Shown in pieces: positions 8,121-64,000 of a DNA stretch of 64,000 nucleotides. Below the pieces are notes generated by a model that ran no database searches, was not told where the DNA came from, and saw only the letters and a list, made by a program, of their open reading frames with translations. The number at the start of each line of letters is the position of its first letter. Within the stretch, counting starts at the first letter, position 1. The translations under genes were made by a program, and so were the position numbers. The stretch lies in assembly GCA_965262725.1 (NCBI GenBank), contig OZ253555.1, positions 3,296,001 to 3,360,000 on the forward strand, read 5' to 3'. This stretch comes from Dehalococcoidia bacterium (GTDB taxonomy: Bacteria; Chloroflexota; Dehalococcoidia; UBA2979).

Positions 8121-8404
8121 CGCCCGCTCACAGCGCCGAACCGGAGCCGAAGCTCGCGCCAGCATGCCCGCCCACGCCTCGCGCACCCTCGCGCCCGCAC
8201 CCTCAGCGCCCCCGAGCGGTGCTGAGCGACGGCTCCTGGCTCCGGCCCGCCCCCGGCGCCGCCCGGCGAACGCCGACACACCCGTCGAACTCTCCGGCAG
8301 CCCGGCACCCCGCCTCGTCAAGCTTCGTTCGGTTCGCGGTAGGGATGCCGGTTGCCCGGCACCCCCCGCACAGATCCGGACGTGCCCTCTCGGGCATCCG
8401 GCTC

Positions 8405-9733
8405 CTACCTCAAGTGCGTGACGGCAAATCGCTCCGCAGGCCACGGGTGAAGGATGGAGATTCGGGGCCAGTGTCCCTGGCACAGGGCAAGGATGCGCTC
8501 CCACGTGAAACGGTCGCGCTGCGACCGCCGTCGGAGAACGCGCAGCCAGAGCCGCTTCACGAAACGGACAAACCGCGTGAGCGCCGGCGAGCTGGTCGGC
8601 ACCGCGTAGTAGCCAAGCCACCCACGCAGTACCCGCCCCAGCCACTGCCCCGTCGTCACGGGGTTGTCGTGCATGCGCCGCCACAACTCGGCCTTGATGA
8701 CCTTCAGCGTCCGGCGCATCCGCTTCGCAACGGGCTTGCGCCCCAGCCCGAATCTCCCGTCGCGTCGGGTCCGGCAGTAGTGCGTCATGCCGAGAAAGTC
8801 GAACGTTTCCGGTCGGCCCTCCCCGCGCTTCCGCCTGTTCGCCAGCGCGAACCTGCCGAACTCAAGTAGACGGGTCTTCTCCGGGTGCAGCTCCAGCCCG
8901 TAGGCCGCGAACCGCTCCCGGAGTGCCTCCATGAACCGCACCGCATCGCTGCGGTGCTGGAACCCCAGGACGAAGTCATCGGCATACCGCACGATGTACG
9001 CCTCGCCCCGGACCTCCCGCGGTCGCCACTCGCGCGCAAACCAGTCGTCGAGCACGTTGTGCAGGTACACGTTCGCAAGCAGCGGCGATATCGGCGCCCC
9101 CTGCGGCATCCCCCGCACGAAATCGACTTCCGGCTCCGCGTCCATGACGCCGACGCTCAGCCACTTTCGTATCAGGCGCAACACCCGCTGGTCCCCGATG
9201 CGCATCTCCAGAAACGACATCAGCCGCCCCCGGTCGATGCTGCCGAAGAACTCCCGGATGTCCACCTCGACAATCCAGCTGACCTTGCGCCGTTCGACCG
9301 CGTAGGCCAGTGCGTCCAGCGCGTCATGCGCCGAACGCCCCGGCCTGAAGCCATGCGAGAAGCCGTAGTAGCCCGACTCGTAAATCGGGTTCAAAAGATT
9401 GTCCACCACCGCCCGCTGAACGATCTTGTCCTCCAGCGAGACGATACCGAGCGGCCGTATTCCCCCGTCCGGCTTGGGTATCTCTACCCGCCTGACGGGC
9501 TTCGCCCGGTACGCTCCACGGTGTACGCGGCCATGCAGGTCGAGCAATCGCTCGTCCAGCCCGTCCCCGTATTCTCGCCACCTCACCCCGTCCACGCCCG
9601 GAGCCGCATCCCGCTTCAACGCGAGATACGCCTCCCGCAGCGCCTCCGGCGTGATGTGGTGCAAGAGCGCGGTGAGTTTCTCTCCCGGCTTCCGTTCCAC
9701 GAACTGCCGTATCCTCTCCGCTCCGGGTGACAC
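8405..9733 (-). CDS. ltrA: Group II intron reverse transcriptase/maturase
   Basis: AAPGVDG, IPKPDGGIRPLGI, GFRPGRSAHDAL, GMPQGAPISPLLANVYLH, RYADD, FDFLG. Ends ILHPWP with no HNH domain. Confidence 0.95.
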   Translation of the reverse strand: MSPGAERIRQFVERKPGEKLTALLHHITPEALREAYLALKRDAAPGVDGVRWREYGDGLDERLLDLHGRVHRGAYRAKPVRRVEIPKPDGGIRPLGIVSLEDKIVQRAVVDNLLNPIYESGYYGFSHGFRPGRSAHDALDALAYAVERRKVSWIVEVDIREFFGSIDRGRLMSFLEMRIGDQRVLRLIRKWLSVGVMDAEPEVDFVRGMPQGAPISPLLANVYLHNVLDDWFAREWRPREVRGEAYIVRYADDFVLGFQHRSDAVRFMEALRERFAAYGLELHPEKTRLLEFGRFALANRRKRGEGRPETFDFLGMTHYCRTRRDGRFGLGRKPVAKRMRRTLKVIKAELWRRMHDNPVTTGQWLGRVLRGWLGYYAVPTSSPALTRFVRFVKRLWLRVLRRRSQRDRFTWERILALCQGHWPRISILHPWPAERFAVTHLR

Positions 9734-9849
9734 CGCACCCCGACTCTGCGTCCGGACCGTGCCGGTGCTTTGAGGATTCCTCTCGGTTGGGGCCCTTTGC
9801 TCCAGCGACTCCGCCGGGGCTCGCGCCCCCTTCTATGAGGGTCGTCTGA

Positions 9850-10170
9850 TCCGCAAGGCCGACGTGGCGGCCTTCTGCACCGTTCTACCGATCGCGCCTC
9901 CCGTCCGCAGCCCTGTGGTGGTTGTCGGTGCCGATGCGAGTGGTGCCGCCGTCTTGTCCCCGGGACGTTGTGGTGACCGTGCTTCTATTCGCACTCGTCG
10001 AGGGGCCGCTCCGGGCCCGGTGCATGATGATCAGCCTGTCTCCAGGGTGTGGGCGCTGCCATCTTGTTCCCGTCCTCGTTGGGACCAGGGGGTTCCGCAG
10101 TCGCCCGCGTGTCGGCATCTCTCGTATCCTCCGAAGCCCACCGGCCGCCCGGTCGCCTCGCTCCTCGCGT
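9850..10170 (-). ncRNA. Candidate bridge/seek RNA in the IS1111 3' non-coding end
   Basis: ~345-bp non-coding end downstream of the recombinase. It contains CTTGTTC (10063-10069; core plus target flank) and CTTCTAT (9982-9988; core plus element end). RNA limits are approximate. Confidence 0.6.
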
Positions 10171-10178
10171 GCTGTCTG

Positions 10179-11270
10179 CTACGCCGCCTCGGCCGCGCGC
10201 GCGTGGCGCAACGGCTCGTAGACCTCCCCGCTCTTCCAGAGCGCAAGCATCAGCACCGCCAGTCGCCTCGCGACCGCGACGACGGCACGCTTCTTCGCAT
10301 TGCCGGCCCCCGACTCCGCGTAACGCAGCCCCCACCTGCGGAGGTCGCTGTCGGGGCCGAAGGGGCCCAGGATGTAGTGCGCGGCCTGGTTCAGCACCCG
10401 GCGCAGCGCCACGTCCCCTTCCTTCGTGATCCGCAGCTGGGGCTGCCGATCACCGGAATCGCGGCTCCGGGGCACCAGCCCCAGGTAGGGCCCCACCTCC
10501 CTGTTCTTGGGGAAGCGGGCCGGGTCCTCGATGGTGAGGATGAAGGTGAGCGAGGTGATCGGGCCGACGCCCACGATCTGCCGCAGCGCGCCGGTCTCCG
10601 CGTAGCGCTCGCACATCGCGGCGAGCTTCTTGTCGGCCTGGCGGATCTCCCCGGTCAGCTGCTCGATCTGGTGGAGCACCGGCAGCAGCGCCGGGCCCAG
10701 CTCCTCGGGGATGTGCTCTCTGACCGCGCGGTGGAAGGCCGGCGCCGTGCAGCCCGGAAGCGCCGCGCCCCACGCCTTCACCGCGCCCCGGACGTGGTTG
10801 ATGAACATCGTGCGCGCCCGGACCAGCGCCTCGCGGCTGCGGAGCACCTGGAGGTCCGCCTGCGCCATGGCGCTTCGGTGCCGGATGGGGAAGAGGAGCG
10901 CCGGGTCGAATCGGCCGAGCCGTGCGAGGTGCTCGGCATCGGAGCGGTCGGTCTTGCGCTGGCTGCGCGCGATCAGCCTGACCTGCCTCGGGTTGGCGAC
11001 GATCACGTCGTGACCGAGCTCCGCGAACATCCGGCTCAGCCACGGGGAACGCGGCCCCACCTCCATCACCACCCGGGCGCCCTGCAGTGGGGTGAGCGCC
11101 CGCGTGAGCGCCGCGGTCGTGGTGCGGACTCGCTCCTCCCGCACGATCTCCCCGTCGCCACCGAGGACGCAGAGGTGGCTGTAGCGGTCGCTGACGTCGA
11201 TGCCGACAGTCACGAGCTCCGCATCCCCCACCTTCCTGCTCTCTGTGACATCTGATGTACGCTGTGCCAC
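10179..11270 (-). CDS. IS110-family DEDD recombinase/transposase
   Basis: VTVGIDVS, VMEVG, KTDRSDA, YLGLVPRSRDSG, AVVAVARRLA. GTG 11270 follows an AGGTAGGAG RBS. Confidence 0.92.
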   Translation of the reverse strand: MAQRTSDVTESRKVGDAELVTVGIDVSDRYSHLCVLGGDGEIVREERVRTTTAALTRALTPLQGARVVMEVGPRSPWLSRMFAELGHDVIVANPRQVRLIARSQRKTDRSDAEHLARLGRFDPALLFPIRHRSAMAQADLQVLRSREALVRARTMFINHVRGAVKAWGAALPGCTAPAFHRAVREHIPEELGPALLPVLHQIEQLTGEIRQADKKLAAMCERYAETGALRQIVGVGPITSLTFILTIEDPARFPKNREVGPYLGLVPRSRDSGDRQPQLRITKEGDVALRRVLNQAAHYILGPFGPDSDLRRWGLRYAESGAGNAKKRAVVAVARRLAVLMLALWKSGEVYEPLRHARAAEAA

Positions 11271-11834
11271 GGTCGGTCTCCTACCTCTCTCGGCTCGCCT
11301 GAGCCGTTCTCCTGGGCCACCACGTGAGCCCGTGCTTGGAGGGGAAGTATCCCCTCTGAGGAGGGGACCGACCCTCATGTCATCTTGTTCGCCGCCTTCA
11401 TCGCTCGTACGGCCCCATCAGACTGCTGCGCATCGTTCATCATCGGCTACGGTTTACGTCCCTTCCCGACGCGGTCCCGGCGTACGACTCGTCGGGACAA
11501 CGCGCAGCTCTCCCAAGTCCCGGCGATAGACGTGTGTGCGTGCATGGGGTCTTCGACACCGTGGGGCCCGACCACGACTCGCCAGTAGCGCCGTCGCCGG
11601 TATTGCCTTCGACCAATCCAAGAGCCTCGGCACCCCAAATGGCCCTTTCGATGCTCATTAGCCCCGCCCGCACACCCCGCTGCCGACGCTTCACAAGCCG
11701 CCTCGCGACGACCCGCGCACGGCTCGCGGAATGACATGAGTGGCTAGCTCTTTGCCATAGAGGACTTCCACCTCCTGCCTACTCGCCAGTTAGCCTGGCG
11801 CTCTGGATTCGAGCTTAAGGGCGGGGACGCCCGA

Positions 11835-49345: not shown

Positions 49346-49591
49346 CTGCCCCCGGGGGAGCACTGTAGCGAACGGTTGTTGAATCTCCGCCCAATCTGGA
49401 GCGGTATTGGTACCACTTCTGTGCAATCACGCCGCCAGCTGTCTCCGAGCGAATACTGTGAATCGCCAAGGTCTATAGACCACGAAATCGCCAGATCGCC
49501 AGGGTCATTGATCCACCCCGTCAGGGACTCCTGCCCGCCCGGGTCGCCGGTACGGCCACCATCGCCTGCATCCCCAGCGGAGGGAGCAGCG

Positions 49592-51172
49592 ATGGCCTAC
49601 CGGGAGGTACACGGGGTGGAGATCCAGGAGATCATTCGACGCTGGCAGGCGGGGCTCAGCCAGCGCCGCATCGCCAGCGGCACGGGGCTATCGCGCGTGA
49701 CGGTGCGCCGCTACGTCGAGGCGGCCGAGGCGGCCGGCCTCACGCCGGGCGGTCCCGAGCCGAGTGAGGAGCAGCTCGCCGCGCTGGCGACGCTGAGCCT
49801 CTCCGGCCCGCGGCAGGTCGAGGCGCCGAGCGAGGAGCTGCTCTCGCCCTGGGCGGAGCAGATCGAGCGCTGGCTTGAGACCGACCGCCTGCAACTGACG
49901 CGCATCCAGGAGCTCCTCGCCGGACGAGGCTGCGAGGTCTCCTACACCACGCTGCGGCGTTTCATCCGGCGCCGCGGCTGGCGCCACCGGCTGCCGTCGA
50001 CCGTGCGCATGGACGACGGGCCGCCGGGCGAGGTGGCGGAGATGGACTTCGGCCGCCTCGGCTTCATCCGGGACCCCGAGAGCGGCCGCCGGCGCGCGGT
50101 GTGGGCGCTGGTCGTCGTCTGGCGCTACTCACGCCACTGCTTTGTGTGGCCCACCACCAGCCAGAAGCTGGACGCTGTGATCGAGGGCCTGGAGGAGGCC
50201 TGGGCCTTCTTCGGGGGCGTGCCGCGCTACCTCGTCATCGATAACTTCCCGGCCGCCGTCGCCGGGGCCGACGCGCTGCACCCGCGCTTCACGCGGGGCT
50301 TCCTCGAGTACGCCCGCCACCGCGGCTTCATCACCGACCCCGCGCGCGTGCGTCATCCCCGCGACAAGCCGCGCGTCGAGCGCAGCATCCCCTACGTGCG
50401 CGAGCGCCTCTTCAAGGGCGGCGACTTCCGGGACGTCGTCGACCTGCGCTCCGCCGCCCGCAGCTGGTGCCTCGAGGTGGCGGGGCAGCGCATCCACGGC
50501 ACGACACGCCGGCGCCCGCTCGAGGTCTTCCTGAAGGAGGAGCTCCCTCTGCTCGCTCCCTGGGACGGCGAGCCCTACGAGGTCCCCGACTGGCGGACGG
50601 CCACGGTCCACCCGGACCACCACATCGCCTGCCAGTACGCCCTGTACTCGGTGCCGTCCATGGCCTGCCCGCCCCGCCAGAAGGTCGAGGTGCAGCTCGG
50701 CTCGAAGCTGGTGCGCATCTACCACCGCGGTCAGCTCATCAAGGTGCACCCGCGCCAGCGCCGGGGCGGCCGGGCCACCGACCCGAACGACTACCCGGCC
50801 GAGCTCACCCCCTACACCAGGCGGGCGCCCGACTGGATACAGCGCCGCGCCGCCGAGCTGGGGGAGGCCGTGGGCGCCTACGCCGAGCGTCTCTTCGAGG
50901 GCTCCCTGCCCTGGGCGAAGCTGCGGCAGGGCCACAAGCTCCTCCGCCTCGCCGAGCGCTACTCCCCCGACCGCCTCGATGCCGCCTGCCGCCGCGCGCT
51001 CGAGGTCGACCTCATCGACGTGCGCCGCCTCGAGCGCATCCTCGTCGAGGCCCTCGACCAGGAGAGCACCCCAGACCAGCCCGAGCTGCCGCCGCCTCCG
51101 GGGCGCTTCGCCCGCTCGGGCTCCGTCTTCGCCCAGTCCCGCACGCAGACCCCGACAGGAGCACCACGATGA
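49592..51172 (+). CDS. istA: IS21 transposase
   Basis: N-terminal HTH, PGEVAEMDFG, VIDN, PRDKPRVER, RIHGTT. Confidence 0.93.
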   Translation: MAYREVHGVEIQEIIRRWQAGLSQRRIASGTGLSRVTVRRYVEAAEAAGLTPGGPEPSEEQLAALATLSLSGPRQVEAPSEELLSPWAEQIERWLETDRLQLTRIQELLAGRGCEVSYTTLRRFIRRRGWRHRLPSTVRMDDGPPGEVAEMDFGRLGFIRDPESGRRRAVWALVVVWRYSRHCFVWPTTSQKLDAVIEGLEEAWAFFGGVPRYLVIDNFPAAVAGADALHPRFTRGFLEYARHRGFITDPARVRHPRDKPRVERSIPYVRERLFKGGDFRDVVDLRSAARSWCLEVAGQRIHGTTRRRPLEVFLKEELPLLAPWDGEPYEVPDWRTATVHPDHHIACQYALYSVPSMACPPRQKVEVQLGSKLVRIYHRGQLIKVHPRQRRGGRATDPNDYPAELTPYTRRAPDWIQRRAAELGEAVGAYAERLFEGSLPWAKLRQGHKLLRLAERYSPDRLDAACRRALEVDLIDVRRLERILVEALDQESTPDQPELPPPPGRFARSGSVFAQSRTQTPTGAPR

Positions 51173-51942
51173 CCGCCACCACCTCAGACCTCCGCCCGCT
51201 GCTCAAGCGCCTCAAGCTCGGCCGTATGCTCGACACCCTGCCCGAGCGCATCGCCCTCGCGCGGCGCGACCACCTCGACTACGCGGACTTCCTGCAGATC
51301 CTGCTCGTCGACGAGGTGAGCCGCCGCGACCACGGGCGGTTGGAGCTGCGCCTGCGCCAGGCCGGCTTCGAGCAGCTCTGCCGCCTCGAGGACTTCGACT
51401 GGGCGGCCGCCATCCGGCTCGACCGCCGCCTGCTCGACGCCGCCTTCTCGCTGCACTTCCTCGATCGCCGCGAGCACGTCCTGCTCGTCGGCCCCGTCGG
51501 CGTCGGCAAGAGCTTCTTAGCCCAGGCGCTCGGCTACTCAGCCGTCCGCTCCGGACGCAGCGTCCGCTTCGCCCCGGCCGACCACTACTTCCGCGAGATG
51601 GCGCAGGCCCGCGTCGACCACTCGGCCGAGAAGGTCTTCCGAAGCTTCCTCGCGCCCGACCTGCTCATCCTCGACGACCTCGGGCTCCATCGCCTCAGCG
51701 CGCAGCAGTCCATCGACCTCTACGAGCTGGTCATCGGGCGCCACCGCAGCTCCAGCTTCGTCATCACCTCGAACCGCGCCGTGGAGGAATGGCTGGGGCT
51801 CTTCGACGACCCGATCCTCGGCAACAGCGCCCTCGACCGGCTCGCGAACGCCAGCTACCAGATCGTGATCGAGGGCGATAGCTACCGCCAGCGGCTCTCG
51901 CCGCACCGCGCCCTGCTCGAGGCGCAGACGGGAGGTGATTGA
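51169..51942 (+). CDS. istB: IS21 helper AAA+ ATPase
   Basis: GPVGVGKS Walker A, LLILDDLG Walker B, ITSNR, ALDRL; ATGA overlap with istA. Confidence 0.94.
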   Translation: MTATTSDLRPLLKRLKLGRMLDTLPERIALARRDHLDYADFLQILLVDEVSRRDHGRLELRLRQAGFEQLCRLEDFDWAAAIRLDRRLLDAAFSLHFLDRREHVLLVGPVGVGKSFLAQALGYSAVRSGRSVRFAPADHYFREMAQARVDHSAEKVFRSFLAPDLLILDDLGLHRLSAQQSIDLYELVIGRHRSSSFVITSNRAVEEWLGLFDDPILGNSALDRLANASYQIVIEGDSYRQRLSPHRALLEAQTGGD

Positions 51943-52264
51943 CGCGCTAGACGCTCACTGATATCAAGCCGCCTACCGGCGTCCCGGGTGGTCTAATGAC
52001 CGTGGCGACGCGTGGATCAATGACCCTGGCGATCGACAAATACACACCACCGTACTCCGCAGCTTGTCGTGCCATCGACCGGTGCCCCGTGCAATGGCCT
52101 GAGCCGCAGCCGTCGAGCAGCGGCTCGAACGAGCTGGACCAGGCTCGCAGCGAGACGGCGCCCGGGCAGCAGGAACAGGCCGCTTCGCCCCGCGGGGCCG
52201 GCCGCGGCAAGCAGCGCAGCAAGCACCCCAGCCGGCCCGCCGCAGGCGCTCCGGCGGACGACCG

Positions 52265-61963: not shown

Positions 61964-63601
61964 CCCGGATCCACCGGTGACCGGTGTTGAGCGTGCGGAG
62001 GAGCGCGAAGCGGCCGTCGTGTGAGGTGCGGGAGCCGTTTGTGACTCCCGGAGGAGTGCTCGGCGCTGTCCGGGGCGTGTGATCAGCAGGGGAGACCGGC
62101 GCGGAGGCGATTGCGGACAGGCTGGCGCGCGGCGCTGGTCCGCGAGCGGCGAGGGGGAGCGGCGTCAGGTCGGGAGCGGGAGCGCGCGCAGCCGTGCGAG
62201 GGCATCGGTGAAGTGACCGGCCCATGGCCAGCGCGCCGGCAGATGGAGCGTGAACCGACGAGCAGAGCGGGTCAGCCGCCCGACGAGAGCGAAGAGCCGC
62301 CGCCGGAGCGTCCGGGTGGTGACGATGCGCTCGCCGAGCCCGAGCCGCGCCGTCCAGCGAGCGAGATTGTGGGCGATCACCTGGACCGCGAGCCAGGCGC
62401 CGTTGGCGGCGAAGCGGCCGGACGGCAGGTGATTGAGCCCCACGCCGTACTTCAGGTCGCGGATCGCGTTCTCGACCTCGGCGTGGCGGCGATGGTCGGC
62501 CTCCAGTTCGAGCGTCTCTCCGTCGCGGTCGGTGATGAAGGCGTGGTAGCTATACGTCGCGAAGAGAGCGAGCTGCGAACCAGGCGTCGGCCGCACGCGC
62601 CGGACGATGAGCCGCACCGGGACGGCGTCCGGCGCGTGTGCGAACGGCGTGTAGGTCGTCTCTGAGACATCGGCGCCGCCCTCCAGCCAGTACGGGATCG
62701 GCGTCCACTCCTGTTCGGGAATCGCCTCGATGAGCTTCCGCAGCTTCGGATGCTGGCGGATCGTGACCGAGAAGCGGACATCCATCTCGCGGCAGGCAGC
62801 GACCACCGCGCGGGAGTAGAAGCCGCTGTCGGCGCGCACCGTGAGTTGCCCGTTCGCTCCGGCATCGCGGACTCGACCCACCGTCTCCTGTAGGAAGTGG
62901 GCGGCGCCCCGGTCGCTGTACGCACGACCCCCGCGCAGCCGGGCCATTAGCACGTCACCCGTCCCGGCCGCCACCGCGAGCAGCGGGTGATAGCCGCGCG
63001 CACCGGTGTAGCCGGGGCGCTGCGCCCCCTCCTTGGCGAAGCCGTAGGTCTCGCACACCGTCGAATCGAGGTCGATGGTGAATGGCGCCTCGCCGGGTCC
63101 GGCCCCGGCGGCCCAGGCGCGGGCAAGCAGCGCGCGACTGACGCGGTCGAGCTGGCGGACGTGGCCCCAGCGGAAACTGCGTAGGAAGGTGCCGAGCGTG
63201 GATGGCGCCTTGACGGTGCATCCGAGAACGCGCTCTGTGCCGCCGGCGCGCAACGCATCGGCATCGTCGATGCAGTCGCCGCCCGCTAGCACGGAGGCGA
63301 CGAGTGTCGCGACCTTGTCTCCCGCGTTCGCCCTGCCCTGTGCGTCGCCGAGGTCGAGATGACGGTCGACCAGCTCCCGCAGGCCGAGACGTTCGGCGAG
63401 CGTGGCCGGCAGGAGCAGACCCGCGTGGGCCACCAGGCGGTCGTCGTCGAAGGCGATCGAGAGCCGGGCGGGGCTGCTCGGTGATAGCATCGAATGGGTG
63501 CTCCCTGTTTCCGGTGGATCGTTCGCTTCACGACCATTCTCCCAGATTCAGAGGAGCACCCAATTCCCTCTCTTCGCGACTGCATCCACGCTCTCCTTCG
63601 G
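61964..63601 (-). mobile_element. IS1380-family element (copy 3, divergent isoform), left terminal repeat split by a group II intron
   Basis: Right end CCCGGATCCACCG at 61964. Upstream end CTCTCCTTCGG (to 63601) resembles the inner part of the copy-2 left end and is followed directly by intron sequence. Confidence 0.88.
62165..63490 (-). CDS. IS1380-family DDE transposase
   Basis: 441 aa, colinear with the 6795-8120 protein but with many substitutions. Confidence 0.93.
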   Translation of the reverse strand: MLSPSSPARLSIAFDDDRLVAHAGLLLPATLAERLGLRELVDRHLDLGDAQGRANAGDKVATLVASVLAGGDCIDDADALRAGGTERVLGCTVKAPSTLGTFLRSFRWGHVRQLDRVSRALLARAWAAGAGPGEAPFTIDLDSTVCETYGFAKEGAQRPGYTGARGYHPLLAVAAGTGDVLMARLRGGRAYSDRGAAHFLQETVGRVRDAGANGQLTVRADSGFYSRAVVAACREMDVRFSVTIRQHPKLRKLIEAIPEQEWTPIPYWLEGGADVSETTYTPFAHAPDAVPVRLIVRRVRPTPGSQLALFATYSYHAFITDRDGETLELEADHRRHAEVENAIRDLKYGVGLNHLPSGRFAANGAWLAVQVIAHNLARWTARLGLGERIVTTRTLRRRLFALVGRLTRSARRFTLHLPARWPWAGHFTDALARLRALPLPT

Positions 63602-64000
63602 TTCGCGGTAGGGATGCCGGTTGCCCGGCACCCCCCGCACAGATCCGGACGTGCCCTCTCGGGCATCCGGCTCCTACCTCAAGTGCGTGACGGCAAATCG
63701 CTCCGCAGGCCACGGGTGAAGGATGGAGATTCGGGGCCAGTGTCCCTGGCACAGGGCAAGGATGCGCTCCCACGTGAAACGGTCGCGCTGCGACCGCCGT
63801 CGGAGAACGCGCAGCCAGAGCCGCTTCACGAAACGGACAAACCGCGTGAGCGCCGGCGAGCTGGTCGGCACCGCGTAGTAGCCAAGCCACCCACGCAGTA
63901 CCCGCCCCAGCCACTGCCCCGTCGTCACGGGGTTGTCGTGCATGCGCCGCCACAACTCGGCCTTGATGACCTTCAGCGTCCGGCGCATCCGCTTCGCAAC
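63602..64000 (-). mobile_element. Group II intron copy 2 (3' end: RT C-terminus, domains V-VI; truncated by window edge)
   Basis: Matches ~8333-8730 with no difference seen by eye; ORF 63674-63988 equals the C-terminus of the 8405-9733 protein. Confidence 0.92.

Follow-up and report, generated by a model that had tools for sequence, protein, structure and literature searches.

An IS1111-group insertion sequence within a group II intron of a Dehalococcoidia bacterium, and its putative guide RNA

IS4321 and IS5075, both members of the IS1111 group, target the terminal repeats of Tn21-family transposons, and another IS1111 group targets attC. The bridge RNA or seekRNA mechanism on which such elements rely is itself already known (2024). 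As described by Siddiquee et al. [quoted passage not shown] Here we analyse a window (the whole stretch of DNA under study, 64 kb long) of a Dehalococcoidia bacterium in which a group II intron is interrupted by an insertion sequence. We consider it very probable that this is an IS1111-group element whose recombinase is guided to a motif of the intron by an RNA from the element's own 3' non-coding end. A group II intron as the target of such an element appears to be new, and a literature search, as far as titles and main-text passages go, returned no report of an IS110/IS1111 element targeting a group II intron.

The element and its host intron

The features of the locus that concern the element, its gene and its host are the following.

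9830 to 11386, minus strand: IS1111-type insertion sequence, with AAG (core AG) at both junctions (junction reading, empty sites, contig joint and copies)
11369 to 11378, minus strand: left subterminal inverted repeat ATGAGGGTCG, set back 5 nt from the left end (direct reading)
9835 to 9844, minus strand: right subterminal inverted repeat CGACCCTCAT, separated from the core by 3 nt (direct reading)
10179 to 11213, minus strand: recombinase (transposase) gene, 344 aa, GTG start inferred (Pfam, NCBIfam and PDB relatives)
8332 to 11803, minus strand: group II intron hosting the IS, about 1918 nt without it (Rfam and maturase match; ends from copy alignments)
11384 to 11416, minus strand: 5' half of a domain III-like hairpin, with the internal loop GAACAAG at its end (fold of uninterrupted copies)
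9789 to 9829, minus strand: 3' half of the domain III-like hairpin, starting with the apical stem-loop GGGGC-GCGA-GCCCC (fold of uninterrupted copies)

Read on the minus strand, the left junction is GGCGAAC-AAG-ATGACAT, with its AAG at 11386-11384, and the right junction is CCTCATAG-AAG-GGGGCGC, with its AAG at 9832-9830, which gives an element of 1554 bp when counted with one AAG. The two subterminal repeats are 10 bp each and lie 5 and 3 nt from the ends, the left one, ATGAGGGTCG, being the reverse complement of 9844-9835. The uninterrupted sequence GAACAAGGGGG is present in 10 intron copies of the same genome, an exact empty site that bears out the first-pass annotation, which had described an IS1111-type element inside a group II intron with GGCGAAC-AAG-GGGGCGC as its target. 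Furthermore, metagenome contigs from three runs join position 9829 to 11384, with 1554 bases skipped and three letters that fit either side. Since the empty sites hold a single AAG, there is no target duplication beyond the shared core. The excised element would form a circle junction in which both ends abut; no such joint was seen in the assembled metagenome contigs.

The recombinase matches the Pfam families PF01548 (E 2.7e-19) and PF02371 (E 7.2e-18), and scores 217 bits against NCBIfam NF033542, 'IS110 family RNA-guided transposase', for which the cut-off is 140. Its relatives in the PDB are the transposases of ISCro4 (E 2e-9) and IS621 (8wt6, E 7e-9), the latter match covering the C-terminal third of the protein. 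In the translation the serine motif reads GLVPRSRDSG, which fits the IS1111-group pattern. With a DEDD (RuvC-like) N-terminal and a C-terminal Transposase_20 domain, subterminal repeats, a non-coding region that is longer downstream of the gene (346 nt, 10178-9833) than upstream of it (about 170 nt, 11383-11214), and an insertion that is both site- and orientation-specific, the element is, as judged from its sequence, a member of the IS1111 group of the IS110 family.

The host is identified as a group II intron by its ribozyme domains and an intron-encoded reverse transcriptase/maturase. RF02005 matches with 170 bits at 11768-11547 (gathering score 49), RF00029 with 39.9 bits at 8406-8332, just under its gathering score of 40, and the intron-encoded protein (8405-9733) reaches 326 bits against TIGR04416 (cut-off 300). 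The insertion site falls in a hairpin of 74 nt. On its 3' side this hairpin directly adjoins the ORF-enclosing stem CCUCAA/UUGAGG (domain IV), and a domain II-like hairpin lies on its 5' side. The 74-nt hairpin is conserved, with compensatory changes in other intron lineages. Because it is the last hairpin before the ORF-bearing domain IV, the insertion site is probably in domain III, where it had already been placed on first reading; its position and the conserved hairpin with compensatory changes speak for this label. The idea that splicing of this copy would be blocked until the IS is excised is weakened by chloroplast rps12 intron 1, since that intron trans-splices with its domain III split: PMC9275481 describes its separately encoded halves, 1a and 1b, as folding domain III between them.

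Guide windows and the sites they follow

Within the 3' non-coding end, four short segments match either the target or the ends of the element itself.

10063 to 10069, minus strand: left target guide (LTG) GAACAAG, in the same sense as the left target plus core (varies with the left flank of each element)
10087 to 10092, minus strand: right target guide (RTG) CCCCCU, complementary to AG+GGGG on the top strand of the intron target (varies with the right flank)
9982 to 9988, minus strand: AUAGAAG, the left donor guide (LDG), with the same letters as the IS right end plus core (tracks the right end)
10026 to 10030, minus strand: UCAUC, tentatively the right donor guide (RDG), the complement of the core G together with the left-end letters ATGA (register, partial covariation)

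Two of these had been pointed out before, GAACAAG at 10069-10063 and ATAGAAG at 9988-9982 on the minus strand, and both lie at precisely these coordinates. A window-wide shuffle (64 kb, both strands) leads one to expect 1.82 occurrences of GAACAAG and 0.72 of ATAGAAG; rescaled by simple arithmetic to 346 nt of one strand, these figures become approximately 0.005 and 0.002. As to the right-hand guides, which the first-pass annotation had been unable to find, the right target guide CCCCCU is now located, and UCAUC is a tentative candidate only for the right donor guide. The RTG lies 5' of the LTG, and the order inside the target loop is thus right-then-left.

Covariation was assessed over 13 guide variants (this element and 12 related ones) with 20 insertions, drawn from this genome and other Dehalococcoidia assemblies. 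The LTG agrees with its own target over at least 3 nt in addition to the core in 12 of 19 cases, versus 8 of 341 for foreign targets, and the RTG agrees with its own target over at least 6 nt in 11 of 20 cases, versus 5 of 360 for foreign ones. When targets were permuted among the variants, the observed match sums were reached in 0 of 20000 permutations. Across homologues the two windows therefore follow each element's own insertion site and, together with the four copies found at the intron site, this upholds the earlier claim that the 3' non-coding end carries guides aimed at a conserved group II intron motif. The match is poor on both sides for L038, L046, L047 and L052 (4 of the 19 insertions with both flanks), is restricted to one side for L034 and L044, and is missing from the right side of the truncated copy L055/L057/L058. 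With these 4/19 as exceptions, the target loop holds what is expected of a seekRNA or bridge RNA, namely a top-strand and a bottom-strand segment that overlap at the core and depend on the target. As a separate observation, several of the poorly matching insertions are deleted or rearranged copies.

Close relatives display the same pattern. An older copy, 93-96% identical and located at another site, differs exactly in the guide windows, which match its own flanks. Between L033 and this element, 9 of 18 columns differ inside the guide windows and 6 of 143 outside. A sister variant present on metagenome contigs departs from this element largely within 10065-10069 and 10089-10094; in a metagenome scan the frame pattern was found at 4 loci, and the exact intron-specific guide pair gave 0 matches. 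These relatives also bear on the possibility that the protein alone recognises the site, for instance through the intron hairpin as formed in DNA, in which case the matches in the RNA would be incidental. The target region is indeed imperfectly palindromic and able to form a hairpin, and the subterminal repeats of IS1111 elements are described as possibly protein-bound (PMC11187229). However, L033 has a recombinase that is 94% identical and yet uses an unrelated site, which is matched by the windows of its own RNA, and the published IS1111 elements are described in that same paper as requiring their seekRNA. Recognition by protein alone strikes us as extremely unlikely.

On the donor side, the LDG is the same 7-mer as the right end of its own element in 20 of 20 insertions, and where an A/G polymorphism occurs, it changes jointly in the LDG and the right end. 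With respect to the inner stem, UCAUC has the register of the RTG; its covariation with the left end holds for this element and for L040 and fails for L033. UCAUC is short (4-6 nt), its covariation is partial, and it has CA where the core would need CU; as such, we assign it only tentatively as the right donor guide. Another candidate for this role, GGUCA just after the LDG, was rejected, as it offers only 4 nt and lies partly within the outer stem. Taken together, the comparison of variants supports GAACAAG and ATAGAAG as real guides.

Four copies of the IS, reported to be 100% identical, are present in the genome, and 4/4 copies with these guides occupy the same intron motif, GAACA-AG-GGGG, in the same orientation. 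The intact target is also found unoccupied, as ten 11-mers inside introns and one perfect 11-mer outside introns. This distribution could have come about with matches that have no function, if the IS had entered an intron once and had then been passed on among intron copies, whether through gene conversion or homologous recombination between near-identical introns or as cargo of an intron that retrohomed. Among the four occupied introns, three exceed 99% identity and would provide long homology for such a process, and the orientation of the IS is that of the intron. However, the fourth copy occupies the homologous position of a divergent intron of which the flanks are widely different. Furthermore, the occupied introns differ from one another in their single-base patterns, and each pattern is found again, exactly or nearly, in different empty copies, for which reason the occupied introns are not one lineage. 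Spread among introns also leaves unexplained why the guide windows follow their targets in the 12 other variants, and we regard it as very unlikely.

A conserved frame for the guides

The guides are part of a predicted structure, for which the following coordinates were obtained.

9976 to 10116, minus strand: predicted seekRNA/bridge-RNA core, 141 nt (RNAalifold consensus of 13 variants)
10051 to 10106, minus strand: the whole target-binding loop (consensus fold, pair counts)

In the consensus fold, an outer stem formed by GCCG (10116-10113) and CGGU (9979-9976) encloses the target loop, a small GAGA-capped hairpin (10046-10035) and the donor loop. The target loop thus comes first and the donor loop second, in agreement with the order of a GAACAAG loop followed by an ATAGAAG loop that had been put forward before. 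The target loop is closed by pairing of GGGCG-A-CUGC (10106-10097) with GCAG-CGCCC (10059-10051) and contains an inner hairpin, GUCC..GGAC (10085-10072); these pairs (9 + 4) are kept in 13/13 variants except for one cell, and most of them do not vary. Over the whole consensus 99.7% of cells are paired, versus 34-47% with the partners slid, and the guides fall in the unpaired loops of this conserved stem-loop frame. A compensatory change occurs in only 2 of 30 stem pairs, and covariation support for the stems is thin because most pairs never vary.

The minimum-energy fold of the single sequence has a z-score of -0.57, no better than that of shuffles. It contains the hairpin GAUGGCAGC/GCUGAUCAUC, which the first-pass annotation had drawn after GAACAAG. 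This hairpin exists in the single-sequence fold only and was rejected, since its 5' strand has another partner in the consensus of homologues, where GCAGCGCCC joins the upstream GGGCGACUGC, and since in G003a, G003d and L043 the complementarity between the RDG region and the letters after the LTG is not kept.

Could the matches be fossils, that is, remnants of an old left junction and an old right end that were left behind by nested insertion or imprecise excision? GAACAAG-AUGGCA does resemble a target followed by core and left end (ATGACA/ATGGCA), and nested insertion of this IS family into the non-coding end of a sibling does occur (L056). However, the right target guide is a reverse complement, not a copy, and in several variants the letters that come after the LTG depart from the left end. 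Moreover, both windows lie at fixed places in a frame that is conserved in 13/13 variants, and it is the windows that change and not the frame. A fossil origin of the matches is hardly credible to us.

Searches for related RNAs were made at several levels. Within 9833-10178 no Rfam 15 family was found at E up to 1, a database that may hold no IS1111-type model. The covariance model R1 matches only the 5 IS copies in this genome, with no orphan guide-RNA gene found, and across a sample of the class it matches 2 of 151 genomes, being this genome and one weak match (E 4e-4). IS621-like handshake guides were sought in the RNA of the element and none were identified. A consensus scan of the IS returned no sigma-70-like promoter, the sigma-70 consensus being uninformative for this phylum. 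One terminator-like site, on the strand opposite to the IS, was also returned by consensus scan, which for this phylum is uninformative as well.

Proposed mechanism and comparison with known systems

We propose that the 344-aa DEDD recombinase would be guided by an RNA from the 3' non-coding end of the element, in which two internal loops are set in a conserved frame. The target loop would be programmed for a motif of 13 bp that lies where the internal loop meets the apical stem, in the hairpin next to domain IV on its 5' side. The second loop, by means of AUAGAAG and probably also UCAUC, would bind both element ends as joined in the excised circle, and recombination at the shared AG core would then result in insertion in one orientation. 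Since the target motif resides in a multi-copy intron, the intron copies would constitute a repeated landing site. Directly supported by the sequences compared here are the exact ends, the empty sites, the conserved frame and three guide windows that covary with the DNA they would bind; that the guide RNA is made, is bound by the recombinase and directs recombination by base pairing, we infer by analogy to the published ISEc11 and IS621.

The lineage provides a clean natural case of IS1111 guide-RNA retargeting, with 13 variants of near-identical frame at different sites, among them a pair with recombinases that are 94% identical. It also yields working rules for this subgroup from sequence alone: the core is AG, the left guide extends about 5 nt and the right guide 4-9 nt beyond it, and the right guide comes before the left. 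Likewise, the ribozyme domain of a group II intron would join the repeated sequences that such elements use as landing sites. Within the same lineage, the site used by variant L023 is the terminus of an IS21-family element, and that used by L056 is the guide-RNA hairpin of a sibling. A broader interpretation, which we consider doubtful, is that this Dehalococcoidia IS1111 lineage parasitises other mobile elements by swapping two guide windows, going from an intron hairpin to an IS21-family terminus or to the guide-RNA gene of siblings, and that sense-orientation transcription of the intron supplies both recombinase mRNA and guide RNA. If this were true, the IS might ride along in intron retrohoming, or disable its intron copy until excision. 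Interference of one selfish element with another could be put to the test at this locus.

As with IS4321, IS5075 and the attC-targeting group, the landing site here is a conserved repeated motif of another mobile element; in contrast to theirs, this motif lies in DNA encoding a ribozyme domain of a retroelement. The interrupted host resembles rps12 intron 1 in being a group II intron with a break at domain III, a label that is probable for the host; the halves of rps12 intron 1 are described as separate transcripts that splice with the help of host proteins (PMC9275481), whereas here 1.55 kb of IS RNA would be present in cis.

Compared with the bridge RNA of IS621, as described by Durrant et al. 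(2024, PMC11208160) and Hiraizumi et al. (2024, PMC11208158), the element is alike in that the target loop precedes the donor loop, a dinucleotide core is included in the guides and the recombinase is related. It differs in that its RNA is located at the 3' end, that of IS621 being at the 5' end; in that the right guide precedes the left within each loop, an order reversed in IS621; and in its AG core, CT in IS621, and long subterminal repeats. ISEc11, ISPa11 and ISKpn4, according to their description in PMC11187229, share with it a recombinase of 330-350 aa, subterminal repeats, a long non-coding region downstream of the gene, and a pair of short matches to the target, overlapping where insertion takes place, of which the one to the top strand lies 5'. 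It is also common to them that close relatives are naturally retargeted through exchange of the target segments only. Going by that description, this element stands apart by its high-GC Dehalococcoidia host, its group II intron hairpin target and its AG core, and a second loop matching the element's own ends is seen here, where ISEc11, ISPa11 and ISKpn4 are described by their target matches.

The insertion sequence and its host intron

The minus strand carries a group II intron that is interrupted by a 1554-bp insertion sequence (IS) lying in the orientation of the intron itself.

~11803 to ~8332, minus strand: group II intron, identified by Rfam matches and its ORF
8405-9733, minus strand: intron ORF of 442 aa, a group II reverse transcriptase/maturase (PF00078; TIGR04416 at 326 bits, cut-off 300)

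The Rfam search matched RF02005 at 11768-11547 (170 bits) and RF00029, representing domains V/VI, at 8406-8332 (39.9 bits, just below the gathering score of 40). At the intron's 3' end lies a 134-bp repeat (109-242 and ~8190-8323) with about 15 copies in the genome, mostly without the intron, so that the intron's own homing site seems to be located in a repeat. Part of a second copy of the same intron occupies 63587-64000 and runs past the window end, and its IS site, just beyond, is empty.

The left junction of the IS reads GGCGAAC-AAG-ATGACAT (AAG at 11386-11384) and the right one CCTCATAG-AAG-GGGGCGC (AAG at 9832-9830). Its ORF matches PF01548 and PF02371 in Pfam and encodes a recombinase of 344 aa when counted from the GTG at 11213 (NF033542, 'IS110 family RNA-guided transposase', 217 bits, cut-off 140), with the ISCro4 and IS621 transposases as relatives of solved structure. 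The serine motif GLVPRSRDSG, the 10-bp subterminal inverted repeats (5 and 3 nt inward from the ends) and the position of the long non-coding region (346 nt) downstream of the recombinase gene are among the features by which passages of PMC11187229 and PMC11208160 separate the IS1111 from the IS110 group.

Besides four full copies with a reported identity of 100%, the genome contains fragments and one older copy (93-96% identity), which another element interrupts. The first-pass annotation had raised the question of whether other copies insert at sites unrelated to GAACAAG; all four full copies occupy this same position in intron copies, one of them in an intron with widely different flanks. 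The target GAACAAGGGGG is uninterrupted in 10 further intron copies, and the only non-intron occurrence of this 11-mer, at genome 2481572, is unoccupied. In metagenome contigs from three runs, position 9829 is joined directly to 11384; the joint passes over 1554 bases, and three letters at it could belong to either side. The AAG first proposed as core does stand at both junctions, but since only AG is common to both across all relatives, the core is AG, and the additional A of the window copy a coincidence. At 12 variable sites in the intron's 3' half, three near-identical occupied introns each group with different empty copies, which argues for separate insertions and not for one composite spreading.

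In the fold of uninterrupted intron copies, the insertion site falls within a 74-nt hairpin that consists, from bottom to top, of a GGGGCC/GGCCCC basal stem, an internal loop, a GGCGGC/GUCGCU stem, a GAACAAG/GGCGGA internal loop and an apical GGGGC-GCGA-GCCCC, the IS being placed between the GAACAAG loop and the apical stem. This hairpin comes after a domain II-like hairpin and 5' of a stem, CCUCAA (9775-9770)/UUGAGG (8413-8408), that surrounds the ORF and borders on domain V. The hairpin is kept in the divergent occupied intron and in related introns of two other genomes, where both the basal and the middle stem show compensatory changes. Because of this position and conservation it is most simply read as domain III, as had been suggested.

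The IS might block splicing of the intron. Domain III is described as a catalytic effector; such a block is not certain, however, because chloroplast rps12 intron 1 is trans-spliced from two separately encoded halves, which passages of PMC9275481 describe as folding domain III between them.

Guides and the predicted RNA

Two 7-mers in the element's 3' non-coding end, GAACAAG and ATAGAAG, had been proposed as guides, with none convincing for the right-hand sides. The older copy has a different site, CCTCCCTC-AG-CTTCCGCACG, and two blocks set its 3' non-coding end apart from that of the main copy: in place of GAACCCCCUG it has ACGGAAGCUG, which is the reverse complement of AG+CTTCCG, and in place of GAACAAG it has CCCTCAG, the older copy's own left flank plus core. 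Relatives from a sister genome, named Dehalococcoidia assemblies and metagenome contigs (loci with L-numbers) gave 13 guide variants in 20 insertions, all in one conserved frame: GGGCGACUGCG, a window of 10-11 nt, GUCCCAACGAGGACG, a window whose last letters are AG, then AU and finally GCAGCGCCC. The left window matches at least 3 nt beyond the core in 12 of 19 own targets versus 8 of 341 foreign ones, and the right window shares at least 6 nt with the right flank's complement in 11 of 20 versus 5 of 360; none of 20000 permutations of targets among variants gave sums as high as those observed. Differences between variants concentrate in these two windows, as in L033 (recombinase 94% identical), where 9 of the 18 columns in the windows are changed, against 6 of the 143 others. 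The guide-like matches thus hold up as windows covarying with their own insertion flanks, and because the windows follow each element's targets across variants, CCCCCU (10092-10087) is the right target guide that had been missed. The IS is always in sense orientation in the intron, because the guides are asymmetric.

In the targeted loop, three of seven intron lineages (genome 734425-736345; L068; L070) have GAACAAAGGGG in place of GAACAAGGGGG, a change that would be expected to spoil both guide matches, and the IS is absent from all of these copies. Exceptions speak against the rule: neither side matches well in L038, L046, L047 and L052, a single side matches in L034 and L044, and the truncated L055/57/58 copy has no match on the right. 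Several of the poorly matching copies are deleted or rearranged. The internally deleted L052 shares both flanks with L035, from a different genome, and has different guide windows, a mismatch that may stem from exchange between IS copies.

On the donor side, all 20 insertions carry AUAGAAG or AUGGAAG, identical in each case to the right end of the element itself with the core; the older copy shows its change to AUGGAAG in its right end too. The right donor guide is tentatively UCAUC (10030-10026), which is placed relative to its inner stem in the register that the right target guide has to its own, and which is complementary to G+ATGA at the left end. This window covaries with the left end in the main element and L040 and fails in L033, and it has CA where the core would require CU.

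A consensus fold computed from the 13 variants gave the following elements.

10116-10113 with 9979-9976, minus strand: outer stem
10106-10097 with 10059-10051, minus strand: target-loop closing stem
10085-10072, minus strand: inner hairpin
10046-10035, minus strand: GAGA-capped hairpin
10023-9991, minus strand: donor-loop inner arm

All guides fall in unpaired stretches, and 99.7% of cells do pair, versus 34-47% with partners slid. Since most pairs are invariant and only two show compensatory change, the frame is conserved, but covariation does not prove it. The hairpin initially reported is present in the single-sequence fold and is not kept by homologues. When the alignment was turned into a covariance model, this matched only the five IS copies in this genome; in a sample of 151 genomes of the class it matched 2, this one among them.

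Other mobile targets and known systems

The sister variant L023, in genome G003, targets the terminus of an IS21-family element, its insertion site and guide match being the left terminus TGTGAATCGCC-AG-GTCTATAG. The IS21-family element with this terminus lies in the window.

49496-52037 (genome 3345496-3348037): IS21-family element, 2.6 kb (NF033546, 213 bits)

Near-full copies of this element number at least 15 in the genome, and one of them interrupts the older IS1111 copy. At L056:645-3559 one IS copy lies inside another, in the conserved CCUGG-AG-ACAGG hairpin of the outer copy's guide-RNA region. Because this site is matched by the guide windows of the nested copy, CCTGGAG and the complement of GACAGGTT, the variant is aimed at its siblings' guide-RNA gene. 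IS1111 elements are known to land in other mobile DNA, and both targets fit this habit.

Downstream of the IS at three loci (L040:2776-2941; L042:2818-3599; L044:2805-2910), the final 45-60 bp of its right end stand in tandem 2-5 times, and at L042 part of the non-coding region is present twice as well; these repeats may result from recombination of the right end with an internal target-like site.

The right target guide lies 5' of the left one, which is the order published for IS1111 seekRNAs (PMC11187229) and the reverse of that given for IS621 (PMC11208160). A literature search covering article listings and passages of main text found no report of an IS110/IS1111 element aimed at a group II intron. 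The mechanism is the one described for seekRNA and bridge RNA in 2024, and the element is a further member of that guide-RNA kind, with a type of target that is apparently unreported.
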